The notes under the pieces are model-generated. The model worked only from the letters and a program-made list of their open reading frames with translations, was not told where the DNA came from and searched no databases. Below are positions 589 to 31,783 of a stretch of 49,918 nt of DNA, piece by piece (the first letter of the stretch is position 1; each line of letters starts with the position of its first letter). The stretch comes from Patescibacteria group bacterium (lineage in GTDB: Bacteria > Patescibacteriota > WWE3 > UBA101185 > UBA10185): the NCBI GenBank assembly GCA_032117075.1, contig JAUMAA010000003.1, positions 107,574 through 157,491 of the forward strand, given 5' to 3'. The position numbers were made by a program, and so were the translations under genes.

Positions 589-616
589 ATGTCGTATAAT
601 GTATGTTTAACGACAT
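589..616. other. Putative dif-like site-specific recombination site
   Basis: ATGTCGTATAA-TGTATG-TTTAACGACAT: 11-6-11 layout with arms inverted at 9/11 positions. The spacer matches E. coli dif TGTATA at 5/6. It lies upstream of the xer gene. Confidence 0.75.
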
Positions 617-900
617 ATAAGGTATAGGAAATAAAAAGAGCCTAAATCTCTTGGAAGAGTGGTGAGGTTAATTCCGCAAAATTCCCTAAGCAAGTTAATT
701 AGCAATTAATAATAAAAAATAAAAACACTAAATTGAAATTAAATCGTATTTAATTCAGATTTAATTCTATTTTTATTCATTTTAATCACTAAATGTGCAG
801 GAAATGTTTTCCACATTCGGTAATTAAAAAAATTATGACAAACCTCCAATTTAAAATTATGACAAATATCCTGGCACTCTTCTCCACTTCATGATAACTT

Positions 901-908
901 CCCTGCCC
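901..908 (-). other. KOPS-like octamer GGGCAGGG oriented toward the dif-like site
   Basis: Plus-strand CCCTGCCC in AT-rich intergenic DNA matches GGGNAGGG on the minus strand. Confidence 0.35.
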
Positions 909-931
909 TTTCTTTGGGTTTTGTAGGTGTT

Positions 932-1717
932 TTAAGGCTTAAATGCAATCAAAACTAATAAAAAGAATGAGCTAATTACTACATATTGAATAATTAATTT
1001 CTTATTTAATGAGTTATCTACATAATTTCTTGCATAACTTACCATCGACATATACACGGAGGTAATGAATGTAGCTCTAAAGAAGGATTCAGCAGAAATA
1101 AAACTAGTAGCTACTGAAGCAATCACAGGAAGATAGACCATTTGAAAAATCAAAAGAATATACTCCCTATTACTTACACTATCCCTTTTTGAGATCAGAT
1201 AAGAATGTAAATATACATAACTGGAGGTGAGTAAATAAATAAAGATAAATAAACTATGGATGTAAAACTTAAAATTAAATTTGTAAATGACTGTAATAAA
1301 AGGTATGGTTAGTACTATGAGTAATATTTGTAACCATACCTGACCGACCCTAAATAGAGGGAGCGAGGTATCCTCTACTTTCTCAGCAATAATTAAATTA
1401 TTAATAAGTAAACTCAAATAAAATAAAGCACCTGAAAAAAACATTAGTAGATATTTGAATAAAAATGAAAGATTTGGAAAAAAAATTAAACCCATGATAG
1501 TTGAAGAAAGTATTACTAATGGAAGAAATGAGATGATTATCAGGTCTCTAAACTTAAATCCAGGATACAAAGCTACCAAGTTTATTATAAAGACAACAAA
1601 AAGTGCTATTCCAAGAAACAAATATTTATCTAATTTTACGAAGTCAAAAAGTAAAATGCCAAATTGATAAAATATAAATGCAAATAAAAATTTAGTTCTT
1701 CTAGAAATACTACTCAT
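932..1717 (-). CDS. Multi-pass membrane protein of unknown function
   Basis: 261-aa ORF with about 8 hydrophobic segments; its start overlaps the ruvC stop. Confidence 0.75.
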   Translation of the reverse strand: MSSISRRTKFLFAFIFYQFGILLFDFVKLDKYLFLGIALFVVFIINLVALYPGFKFRDLIIISFLPLVILSSTIMGLIFFPNLSFLFKYLLMFFSGALFYLSLLINNLIIAEKVEDTSLPLFRVGQVWLQILLIVLTIPFITVIYKFNFKFYIHSLFIFIYLLTSSYVYLHSYLISKRDSVSNREYILLIFQMVYLPVIASVATSFISAESFFRATFITSVYMSMVSYARNYVDNSLNKKLIIQYVVISSFFLLVLIAFKP

Positions 1718-28912: not shown

Positions 28913-29650
28913 CTACCAGTTCAGTTTGTATTGGGTGTACAAACCATTTTTCTGGTCTTTCAGAGGGATTGCCCTCTGAATGTCGCAGTCGATGATTCGA
29001 CCCCAAAACTTTTGAACTTGAGTAAGGTCGGTTAAGACCTGTCCTTCGCGAACAGCCCCGTTAAAAATCCCGACCGTCCCTTTCCAAGGACCTGCTATGG
29101 TTACGAAGCTTCGCCCCGTACCAAAGCCAGGAATTTCACTGCCCCATAACAATCCGACCTCACCAGGGGCGATGTCGATTTGATATGCGAGAAATCCTGA
29201 ATTGCCTCGACCCTCGCGGGTTTCGGCAAAATGGATATTCTGGGTACCGCCCTGACAGGGACCTTCGTCCCCGGTTAGAACGGTGGGCATAGGAACCGCA
29301 GTTGCCACCACTGGTTGCTGTATTACTACAACACTCGTTGGCTTAACAACTTTTGCAGCCGTCGCCTTAGTACCGCTACCAGAAGCCTTAGCCTTGGTTG
29401 CGGTCGCGGTCGCTGTGGCCGAAGCCGTTGCGGTCGCTGTGGCCGAAGCCGTTGCGGTCGCTGTGGCCGAAGCCGTAGCCGTCATTGTTGGTGAAGAGGT
29501 AGGGGTAGCCCAAATAGATTGGGCCGTATTGTACCCAATAGTAACAAAGTTTGTTACCACTGAGTATACAAAACCAATCAAAACTAGGACTAGCCCGATA
29601 CCAATAAACCAAATAATAGGCTTTAACACCCAATTCCACAATTTCGTCAT
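28913..29650 (-). CDS. Membrane-anchored surface protein with Thr/Ala-rich stalk
   Basis: N-terminal TM helix, (TATASATA)n linker and a C-terminal globular domain with two Cys; SD GGAGGT; visibly higher GC than its flanks. Confidence 0.85.
   Translation of the reverse strand: MTKLWNWVLKPIIWFIGIGLVLVLIGFVYSVVTNFVTIGYNTAQSIWATPTSSPTMTATASATATATASATATATASATATATATKAKASGSGTKATAAKVVKPTSVVVIQQPVVATAVPMPTVLTGDEGPCQGGTQNIHFAETREGRGNSGFLAYQIDIAPGEVGLLWGSEIPGFGTGRSFVTIAGPWKGTVGIFNGAVREGQVLTDLTQVQKFWGRIIDCDIQRAIPLKDQKNGLYTQYKLNW
29406..29477. repeat. Three tandem 24-bp coding repeats
   Basis: GCGGTCGCTGTGGCCGAAGCCGTT at 29406, 29430 and 29454 (last base differs in the third copy). Confidence 0.95.
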
Positions 29651-29819: not shown

Positions 29820-30134
29820 TCAGTAATTAAGTTCTATCAGACCATCTTTAGACTTTAATGCCTTCTGAAACAACTCCAAAAGAAGCACTTCCTGAGGTAT
29901 TACCCCTTTCAAGAGCTGCTCGACATGTTTCAAATCATTATGTGTTACTGATTGAGTCGAAAGACACCTCACATTTCTCGAGACAGTATCCACTGAGACT
30001 TGAATCACTTTTGTGTATTTGTGATACACAGTGATCTTAGTTGTACCATCAAAGGAATCATTGTAGAGAAAATAGCTATTATCCCCTTCCCTAATCACCT
30101 TTTCTGGTAATTCGTCCCTAAAATCTGACTTCAT
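29820..30134 (-). CDS. Hypothetical protein (104 aa)
   Basis: SD AAGGAG upstream and its own terminator downstream; no recognisable motif. Confidence 0.7.
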   Translation of the reverse strand: MKSDFRDELPEKVIREGDNSYFLYNDSFDGTTKITVYHKYTKVIQVSVDTVSRNVRCLSTQSVTHNDLKHVEQLLKGVIPQEVLLLELFQKALKSKDGLIELNY

Positions 30135-30230
30135 CTCTCATCTCCTTTATACTAAAAGATTCAGATTTAAATTATATATTCTTTTTTAAAAAAAGTATTT
30201 AATAAAATTTAAATTCAAGATTTTATATAG

Positions 30231-30275
30231 GAAACAAAAAGAAATCGGCTGGCGGGGACGAACCCAAGCCAGCCG
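30231..30275 (-). terminator. Second terminator-like hairpin
   Basis: CGGCUGGC...GCCAGCCG (8 bp) followed by AUUUCUUUUUG. Confidence 0.65.
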
Positions 30276-30278
30276 TAT

Positions 30279-30366
30279 AAAAAACATTGCCCAAAAAGGA
30301 CAATGGTAATCATTGGCCCGTGAGGTCGTGGCAGATACATCTTTGTATGGCCTCTCTCAACGGGAC
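30279..30366 (-). ncRNA. Candidate structured small RNA or attenuator-type leader
   Basis: Directly downstream of a consensus promoter; long irregular hairpin, then CAUUGUCC/GGGCAAUG stem plus U6; I could not assign it to a known family. Confidence 0.5.
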
Positions 30367-30370
30367 TTAA

Positions 30371-30399
30371 ATATTAACATAGATAATTATCTATGTCAA
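30371..30399 (-). promoter_or_regulatory. Sigma70 promoter overlapped by a perfect 20-bp palindrome
   Basis: TTGACA (30399-30394), 17-nt spacer ending TGT, TAATAT (30376-30371); palindrome ACATAGATAATTATCTATGT at 30377-30396. Confidence 0.7.
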
Positions 30400-30415: not shown

Positions 30416-31783
30416 TTACTTAAAAATCTTTTTTAAAGTATAACTCTCTTTGGTATCAAGAACTTCGTATCCTAATTTCTCAATTTCCCTTCTCAGAAAG
30501 TCAGCTTTATCAAATATTCCCTCTTTTTTATAGGTCCATCTAATTTTAGCTAAATCTTCAACTTCTTTAGGTACCTCAAATCCCACCAAACTCACCAAAT
30601 TTAATCCTAAAACCTCATCCATTTTAAGTAAAGTATTAAGTTTTACCTCTCTATCTATCGAAGAATTAATTAATTCCCACATGATTGCTAAAGCACCAGC
30701 AGTATTGAAATCGTCCCCAAGCTTTTCAGCAAACTTTTCCAAGAAATTCTTATCCATTCCTTTTTGCTCATTAATTGTAATAGAAGAAACAAAATCGTAA
30801 AGTTTGGCTAAGGTATTTTTAGCCGAATCAAGACCTTCATCAGTAAAATTCATTGATCCTCTATAATTAGAGGTTAGAAAGTAGTATCTTACCGCCATTG
30901 GGCTAAATCCATTAGCTAAAATATCTTCTAAAATAATGACATTACCCTTACTCTTACTCATTTTCTCAGAATTAAAATTAAGAAAGGCAGCATGAAGCCA
31001 ATATTTAACAAATTTTTGGTCAGTAACACACTCGCTTTGAGCGATTTCATTTGGGTGATGAGTCATTTTTAAATCTTCCCCACCAATATGAATGTCCAAT
31101 GTATCACCCAACTCCTTCAAAGCCATAGCAGAACACTCTATATGCCAGCCAGGAAAACCAACCCCCCAAGGAGAGTCGTACTCCTGCAGCCTACTTTTAC
31201 CTGTCGAAAATTTCCACAGTGCAAAGTCATGAGGTGAAAGTTTATCTGGGTTATCCCCTATTCTTGACTGCTCATTCTCAGCTTTATTCGCATATTCAAA
31301 GTATTTTGGAAATCTTGAAACATTAAAATAAATACCATCATCTAATTTGTAAGTGTAACCCTTATCTTCTAAAACCTTAATTAAAAAGATTTGTTCAGAT
31401 ATATAATCTGTTGCTTTAGTAAGTTTATACGGTAAATTAATATTCAACAGTTTCAAATCATTTAGAAAATGATCCGTATAAAATTTAGCAACTTCATTTG
31501 CTGTTTTTCCAATCTCTTTAGCAGCAAGCTCAATCTTATCCTCACCTGAATCCCCATCTCCAGCTAAGTGACCGATATCTGTAATATTCATAACATTCAA
31601 AACCCTGTATCCAAAAAATCTGAGAGTTCTAGCAACAATATCTGAAAAAACATAAACCTTCATATTACCGATATGTGCTTTTCTGTATACTGTCGGTCCG
31701 CAAGAGTACATTCTTACCTCATCATTTTTTTGAGGAATAAAATCTTCCAGTTTTTTTGAATATGAATTGTAAACTTTTATCAT
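30416..31783 (-). CDS. cysS: Cysteine--tRNA ligase
   Basis: YSCGPTVY, HIGN, NITD, DFALWK, PGWHIECSAM, HHPNEIAQ and KMSKS. Confidence 0.98.
   Translation of the reverse strand: MIKVYNSYSKKLEDFIPQKNDEVRMYSCGPTVYRKAHIGNMKVYVFSDIVARTLRFFGYRVLNVMNITDIGHLAGDGDSGEDKIELAAKEIGKTANEVAKFYTDHFLNDLKLLNINLPYKLTKATDYISEQIFLIKVLEDKGYTYKLDDGIYFNVSRFPKYFEYANKAENEQSRIGDNPDKLSPHDFALWKFSTGKSRLQEYDSPWGVGFPGWHIECSAMALKELGDTLDIHIGGEDLKMTHHPNEIAQSECVTDQKFVKYWLHAAFLNFNSEKMSKSKGNVIILEDILANGFSPMAVRYYFLTSNYRGSMNFTDEGLDSAKNTLAKLYDFVSSITINEQKGMDKNFLEKFAEKLGDDFNTAGALAIMWELINSSIDREVKLNTLLKMDEVLGLNLVSLVGFEVPKEVEDLAKIRWTYKKEGIFDKADFLRREIEKLGYEVLDTKESYTLKKIFK

Follow-up and report, generated by a model that had tools for sequence, protein, structure and literature searches.

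A predicted small RNA gene, confined to one genus-level lineage, between cysS and a 104-aa open reading frame in a bacterium with a 693-kb genome

The stretch of DNA analysed here (49,918 nucleotides, hereafter the window) carries, directly after the cysS gene and on the same strand, a promoter-like sequence followed by three hairpins, and it has to be asked whether these hairpins form a riboswitch for the next gene, simply terminate cysS transcription, or constitute an RNA gene of their own. The genome, that of a freshwater bacterium (693 kb in 20 contigs, 94.5% complete, 30.5% G+C), has the minus-strand gene order dnaX (34051-32435), recR (32432-31812) and cysS (31783-30416). The TTGACA hexamer of the promoter begins 16 bases past the cysS stop codon and the three hairpins, designated H1, H2 and H3, come next, the local G+C content of the element being about 44–45% vs 30.5% genome-wide. 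On the 3' side of the H3 tail, an A+T-rich spacer of about 60 nt leads to a AATATATAAT box, a ribosome-binding site and an open reading frame (ORF) of 104 aa. The features of the locus are as follows.

30416-31783, minus strand: cysS, the last gene of dnaX-recR-cysS, without a terminator of its own ahead of the element.
30371-30399, minus strand: sigma-70-type promoter TTGACA-17-TAATAT with a TG-extended -10 box, matching the consensus at 10 of 12 positions.
30377-30396, both strands: palindrome ACATAGA-N6-TCTATGT in the promoter spacer, detected as a self-match on the opposite strand.
30317-30364, minus strand: paired region of H1, the irregular 5' hairpin and conserved core, defined by the minimum free energy (MFE) fold and by conservation.
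30311-30319, minus strand: GGGCCAAUG, a near copy of the H2 3' arm and candidate antiterminator strand, in this strain only.
30279-30305, minus strand: H2, an 8-bp hairpin with U6, defined by the terminator scan and the fold.
30232-30275, minus strand: H3 (30246-30275) with its U-rich tail (30232-30245), defined by fold energy and the conserved tail.
30171-30180, minus strand: AATATATAAT promoter box of the downstream gene, outside the RNA and marking its 3' boundary.
29820-30134, minus strand: the 104-aa ORF downstream of the element, listed for context only.

The original prediction had described four RNA features behind a promoter, and all of them were recovered in place on the minus strand, so that the observation itself is confirmed. 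The long irregular stem with the pairings CCCG/CGGG, UGAG/CUCA, GGC/GCC and AUACA/UGUAU and an AAGA loop is present at 30364-30317 and was reproduced by the MFE fold. The second hairpin, CAUUGUCC/GGGCAAUG, occupies 30305-30285 with U6 at 30284-30279, and was listed by a terminator scan that returned two terminator-like sites in 1.1 kb vs 0.4 expected from shuffles. GGGCCAAUG occupies 30319-30311 and is able to form a duplex of -7.0 kcal/mol with the 5' arm of this hairpin, and the last hairpin, at 30275-30246, has an 8-bp G+C-rich stem and a distal 3-bp stem, after which AUUUCUUUUUGUUU follows. The promoter was likewise found just 5' of the hairpins, its TTGACA-17-TAATAT at 30399-30371 scoring 10/12, and transcription is predicted to start near 30366-30367.

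The claim that the RNA belongs to no known family was upheld by cmscan, since no Rfam family reached its gathering threshold at the element in the window or in either of the two homologous elements described below (L033 and L034). With Rfam 15 and gathering thresholds, the whole window gave five tRNAs and nothing at the element; when matches with E up to 10 were admitted at the locus, only purD, SCARNA7 and ceN61 appeared, all sub-threshold and taken as chance. The purD RNA motif (RF01069) has two hairpins in a similar order and aligned over its full length with 19.6 bits, but this is far below its gathering score of 41 (E = 0.24, with 401 nt searched), the alignment skips the conserved interior of H1, and there is no purD gene nearby. 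ARAGORN reported no tRNA or tmRNA at the element.

A metagenome scan with CysS as the query identified eight loci, five of them close (82–87% aa identity). The element was found directly after cysS in three lineages, namely the window, L033/L037 (identical to each other over the region compared) and L034, whose cysS genes share 85–87% aa identity. L035 and L036, with 82–83% aa identity in cysS, are without promoter, H1, H2 and H3 altogether, a unit of about 215 nt, and there the cysS stop codon runs straight into the AATATATAAT box and a homologue of the 104-aa ORF. Comparison of these two loci with the three carriers indicates that the unit of promoter, H1, H2, H3 and tail is present or absent as a whole. 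As the ORF and its AATATATAAT box, the latter invariant in 5/5 lineages including L035 and L036, exist without the element, it is a separate module and not the leader of the ORF.

Searches further afield gave no homologue. The element was detected by blastn in none of 60 relatives, and a comparison of gene neighbourhoods showed it in none of 30 genomes of the family, where cysS (about 50% aa identity) is mostly followed by a convergent gene. Two models, R1 and R2, were built from the three element sequences; R1 found no convincing homologue in 85 family genomes and R2 none in 133 other genomes of the class, while pattern scans of genome-contig and viral-contig collections produced no match. 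Three weak R1 matches (E 0.01–0.06) were rejected because they align to the terminator part only. As far as these data reach, the RNA is thus confined to a genus-level lineage. Near-identical copies are present on contigs of other public runs, of which X2 and X20 hold the whole element and X3 only its 5' part. Their variants comprise an A-to-C change in the H1 internal loop, as in L033 and L034, a change at one base of the -10 box, an H2 loop shorter by one U and an H2 tail longer by one U; apart from the -10 box base, the strain changes are confined to loops and tails.

The 137-nt RNA of the window folds at -50.0 kcal/mol (z = -4.58), with none of 200 shuffles as good, and the same three hairpins are formed by all three sequences, with z-scores of -4.58, -2.76 and -3.43. 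It had also been proposed that G-U pairs fit the minus strand. This holds only in part: the sense strand folds at -53.1 and the antisense strand at -43.0 kcal/mol in L033, but the two are nearly equal in the window (-50.0 vs -49.6) and L034 (-47.3 vs -46.6); the strand is assigned mainly by the promoter and the U-tails.

Conservation within the element was judged against the third codon positions of cysS, which are 52–58% identical between lineages. H1 has outer stems (CCCG/CGGG and GAG/CUC) and an inner stem, with MGA / ANGAC as its 3x5 internal loop and ACAAAGNN as its apical loop. It is 80–82% identical among the three lineages, mainly in sequence, with the conserved nucleotides in the stems and in the GA-containing 3x5 internal loop. 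Conserved pairing, which had been named as a check on the RNA, was borne out in part: standard pairs are kept in 93.8% of the H1 pair cells of the three sequences vs 24–46% with the partners slid, but covariation is not significant, as there are only three distinct sequences with a single double change and the score was reached by 341 of 500 shuffles.

On this pattern, H1 is taken to be the functional domain of the putative RNA. A protein is tentatively favoured as its partner, with low confidence, over seed pairing with mRNAs: it is the stems and the internal loop that hold the conserved nucleotides, not the linkers, and a scan of 889 translation-initiation regions gave no target that beats shuffled queries. 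Internal loops with tandem G-A pairs are k-turn-like protein-binding platforms, with a canonical bulge of 3 nt. The H1 internal loop resembles them in having GA on both strands (5'-MGA-3' / 5'-ANGAC-3'), so that tandem sheared G-A pairs are possible, and in adjoining a G-C stem; the bulge would be 2 nt instead of 3, and the likeness was judged by eye.

H3 is the only terminator after cysS. Its energies are -21.3 kcal/mol in the window, -21.3 in L033 and -23.5 in L034, with z between -4.6 and -6.5 (window -4.7, L034 -6.5), and a G+C-rich hairpin with a U-rich tail, as expected of an intrinsic (Rho-independent) terminator, is found in 3/3 lineages. The hairpin is 100% identical between the window and L033 and 67% identical to L034, where the stem is kept via two G-C to A-U double changes; the tail is 47–54% identical. 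H3 is best read as the predicted terminator of the RNA, common to the transcripts that read through from cysS. The GGGUUCGUCCC sequence of the H3 loop was considered as a T-arm and rejected, the loop being of 5 nt and becoming UUUAU in L034. In the X2 strain, 5 nt stand in place of 45 nt (window 30193-30237) that take in most of the U-rich H3 tail, and with the tail so shortened the terminating hairpin may differ between strains.

Coding potential was also considered. No ORF on either strand of the element keeps its start, frame or length across the three lineages. A 41-aa ORF (30340-30215) was rejected because its ATG is lost in both homologues, as was a 16-aa ORF with two Cys codons, a conceivable leader peptide, in which a 1-nt indel shifts the frame and the length changes. 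On the other strand, the ORFs begin at different places and vary in length between lineages, and a type I toxin-antitoxin system was discarded in the lack of a conserved ORF on either strand. As for transcripts, the sole contig from a run recorded as RNA (X19) covers only cysS 30534-30684, and the X20 contig spans 30201-30458, that is the element, the promoter and the end of cysS, its RNA nature being a guess; the public-run material (X2, X3, X19 and X20) consists of contigs only, in which no separate transcript is evident.

In its sequence, the locus shows what is looked for in a small RNA gene, namely a promoter and a terminator of its own, no ORF shared between lineages, and more conservation than expected at the neutral level. 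It is probably a stand-alone gene, inserted between cysS and the 104-aa ORF, whose product is a lineage-specific non-coding RNA of about 130 nt. Of the two options offered by the original prediction, the second one, a small RNA in forms of about 88 and 130 nt, fits the data best, and the best reading overall is a new, narrow small-RNA family, restricted to a genus, and not a demonstrated riboswitch.

On this reading, transcription would start at about 30366 from the near-consensus promoter, the palindrome in the spacer possibly acting as operator for a dimeric repressor. The RNA would open directly with H1, whose GA-containing 3x5 internal loop and ACAAAG apical loop would belong to the functional domain, and H2 would be a structural hairpin with a sequence free to drift, although the U6 behind it in the window may cause part of the transcripts to end at about 88 nt. 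H3 and its U-rich tail would provide the real terminator, which would also end the cysS read-through transcripts, and the RNA released would presumably act in trans.

Enterobacterial small RNAs of the DapZ/MicL type, which come from 3'-UTRs, have their own promoter and a terminator common to the upstream mRNA, and work with Hfq and a single-stranded seed. The predicted RNA is similar in having a promoter located where the upstream gene ends or beyond that point and a terminator common with the upstream mRNA, and in being short, non-coding and lineage-restricted; it differs in that those RNAs use Hfq and a seed, whereas here conservation centres on a folded hairpin at the 5' end. To our knowledge, almost no small RNAs have been described in this reduced-genome lineage, a search of the Patescibacteria literature having returned unrelated work only, and very few regulatory RNAs have been described for ultra-small, host-dependent bacteria with genomes below 1 Mb. 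A conserved, promoter-driven small RNA that sister lineages have gained or lost would offer a way into the regulation of organisms that cannot yet be grown alone, though its value is modest, the family being narrow and the gene predicted from sequence.

Among the other explanations, the one that survives best, while still unlikely, is that the locus holds merely tandem terminators of cysS and a fortuitous promoter-like match, with no RNA gene. H2 and H3 do have ordinary terminator shapes, cysS has no other terminator, and promoter-like matches are common in A+T-rich DNA (5 found vs 4.0 expected from shuffles). This explanation, however, leaves H1 without a role, as termination does not need it and it is nevertheless conserved as given above, and the same applies to the promoter, which is 83–90% identical among the three element-bearing lineages vs 52–58% at cysS third codon positions. 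L035 and L036, in addition, have no terminator after cysS. The promoter is also less commonplace than its looser pattern suggests: TTGACA-N16-18-TAnnnT occurs at 35 sites in the 693-kb genome, 17 of them outside long ORFs, in DNA that makes up about 11% of the genome, so that such sites are enriched there, but the exact TTGACA with a TG-extended -10 box is found at just 6 sites genome-wide. The only other intergenic site of this kind, at G000:C1:14510-14538 (minus strand), drives not an RNA gene but a small ORF (about 68 aa), which has a terminator and a strong ribosome-binding site.

The palindrome in the promoter spacer is equally unexpected of a fortuitous match, its arms being invariant in the three-lineage alignment and only its central 6 nt variable. 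It is a candidate operator-like site, to which a protein may bind. No other site in the genome matches it with fewer than two mismatches overall; when one mismatch per arm was allowed, two other sites emerged, each with two mismatches, and a regulon controlled via the palindrome was rejected for want of a close second site.

Somewhat less probable is a cis-acting element of the cysS 3'-UTR, such as a stabiliser or a protein-binding site, that is never a free RNA. The element is always located at this site, and its position immediately behind the cysS stop codon means that it must be part of cysS transcripts. Such a role would leave the conserved promoter of the element unexplained, and the sister lineages L035 and L036, with a similar cysS (82–83% aa identity), do without the element.

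The first option of the original prediction was a riboswitch or attenuator in which H1 is the aptamer and its P1 stem competes with an antiterminator (GGGCCAAUG with CAUUGUCC) that opposes the terminator H2, so as to control either the 104-aa ORF or the ratio of the 88-nt and 130-nt forms; in the light of the comparison it was not supported and is given only a slight chance. The three-way pairing does exist in the window, where the -7.0 kcal/mol duplex was matched by 1.8% of 500 shuffled upstream segments, H2 is followed by U6, and H1 is conserved in sequence with internal loops that may be likened to those of ligand pockets. As in a transcriptional OFF riboswitch platform, the 3' flank of P1 in the window overlaps the strand that pairs with the 5' arm of a U-tailed hairpin; here, by contrast, pairing and U-tail are unconserved, a second strong terminator is present, the downstream gene has its own promoter, and no Rfam aptamer was matched.

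The antiterminator duplex of L033 has an energy of -6.5 kcal/mol, with 31% of shuffles as good, and that of L034 -3.9 (55%), both no better than chance. Even in the window, the fold of the truncated RNA contains 5 bp of the supposed antiterminator beside an intact H1, with which they coexist and do not compete. The terminator fares no better. H2 forms 8–9 bp in each of the three lineages, at -10.9, -11.4 and -7.6 kcal/mol in the window, L033 and L034 (1, 6 and 19 of 200 shuffles as good), but the region of linker and H2 is only 41–53% identical, the hairpin of L033 and L034 standing in the same place with unrelated arm sequences. The U-run after it is U6 in the window, U7 in the X2 strain, U4 in L033 and absent in L034, so that H2 qualifies as an intrinsic terminator in the window and weakly or not at all in the homologues, and every H2 is followed by the strong terminator H3. 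The 104-aa ORF, for its part, keeps its invariant AATATATAAT box where the element is missing (L035/L036). The switch architecture belongs to a single strain and lacks conservation; riboswitch-like alternative pairings in a single sequence can be strain-specific accidents. For the small RNA favoured here, H2 could be a leaky terminator in the window strain, giving rise to the shorter form of about 88 nt.

The two ideas might be combined, with H1 as a new sensor of a metabolite or protein that sets, in the window strain, how often transcription stops at H2, hence a riboswitch-controlled small RNA of 88 or 130 nt, but the prospect of this is slimmer still. If true, a sensor-controlled RNA would sit in a reduced-genome bacterium with otherwise very few known regulators, and a protein acting at the promoter palindrome would provide a second level of control.

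A divergent housekeeping RNA (SRP 4.5S or 6S RNA) is highly improbable: such RNAs are unaccounted for in this genome, where RF00169 and RF01854 (SRP) and RF00013 (6S) found no match, and the locus is linked to dnaX, which the SRP RNA gene adjoins in many bacteria, but the element is missing at the L035/L036 site and in all other genera searched, its roughly 130 nt in three separate hairpins bear no resemblance to 6S RNA, H1 has no GNAR tetraloop when compared by eye with the helix-8 motifs of SRP RNA, and the genome encodes no Ffh or FtsY partner. The SRP reading is in this way effectively refuted.

For the protein side, the genome was found to contain no Ffh M domain, no SRP54-type GTPase above the cut-off and no ftsY or ffh, and the DT[AS]GR motif, used for the Ffh/FtsY check, is in no ORF of at least 80 aa; that SecY was found at 325 bits indicates that the protein search is valid on this genome. 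RF00169 was matched in 0/41 family genomes. The Ffh M domain was detected in 0/41 genomes of the family and 0/81 of a phylum sample, FtsY above the cut-off in 0/51 phylum genomes, and the SRP54-type GTPase domain PF00448 gave only P-loop-level pieces in 61 class genomes. A statement in PMC8080830 has two SRP subunits missing from many CPR bacteria; going by that statement, the absence of SRP was already known.

The 104-aa ORF downstream had no Pfam family match and no usable Atlas match. Its structure was predicted with confidence (pLDDT 84.7), and the model found no Foldseek match at E <= 0.001 and a best VIA Z of 5.9, inside the noise range stated for the tool, hence no clear structural relative. 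The ORF evolves fast, with 61–65% identity among RNA-bearing lineages and 26–35% to the RNA-less ones, across lineages in which CysS stays 82–87% identical. A functional tie between this ORF and the RNA is possible. Further along the minus strand (window 28913-29650), a 245-aa ORF has a hydrophobic segment at its N terminus, followed by a long tract of Thr-Ala repeats; this region is 50–67% G+C in a 30.5% G+C genome, and its sole Pfam match is weak and of low complexity.

Other parts of the genome gave minor observations. The tmRNA is located at C16:6094-6477. Three G+C-rich islands lie outside long ORFs, at G000:C4:51784-52060, C19:12504-12725 and C3:4106-4272; neither tRNAs nor Rfam matches (E up to 0.01) were found in them. 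Last, in another genus of the family, just downstream of the cysS of that genome (L011; G064:C3, about 600-1490, minus strand), a promoter of the TTGACA-N17-TAATAT type is followed by about 800 nt of G+C-rich sequence without a long ORF, for which Rfam gave no match either at gathering thresholds or with E up to 0.1, a region that could be a large unclassified non-coding RNA.
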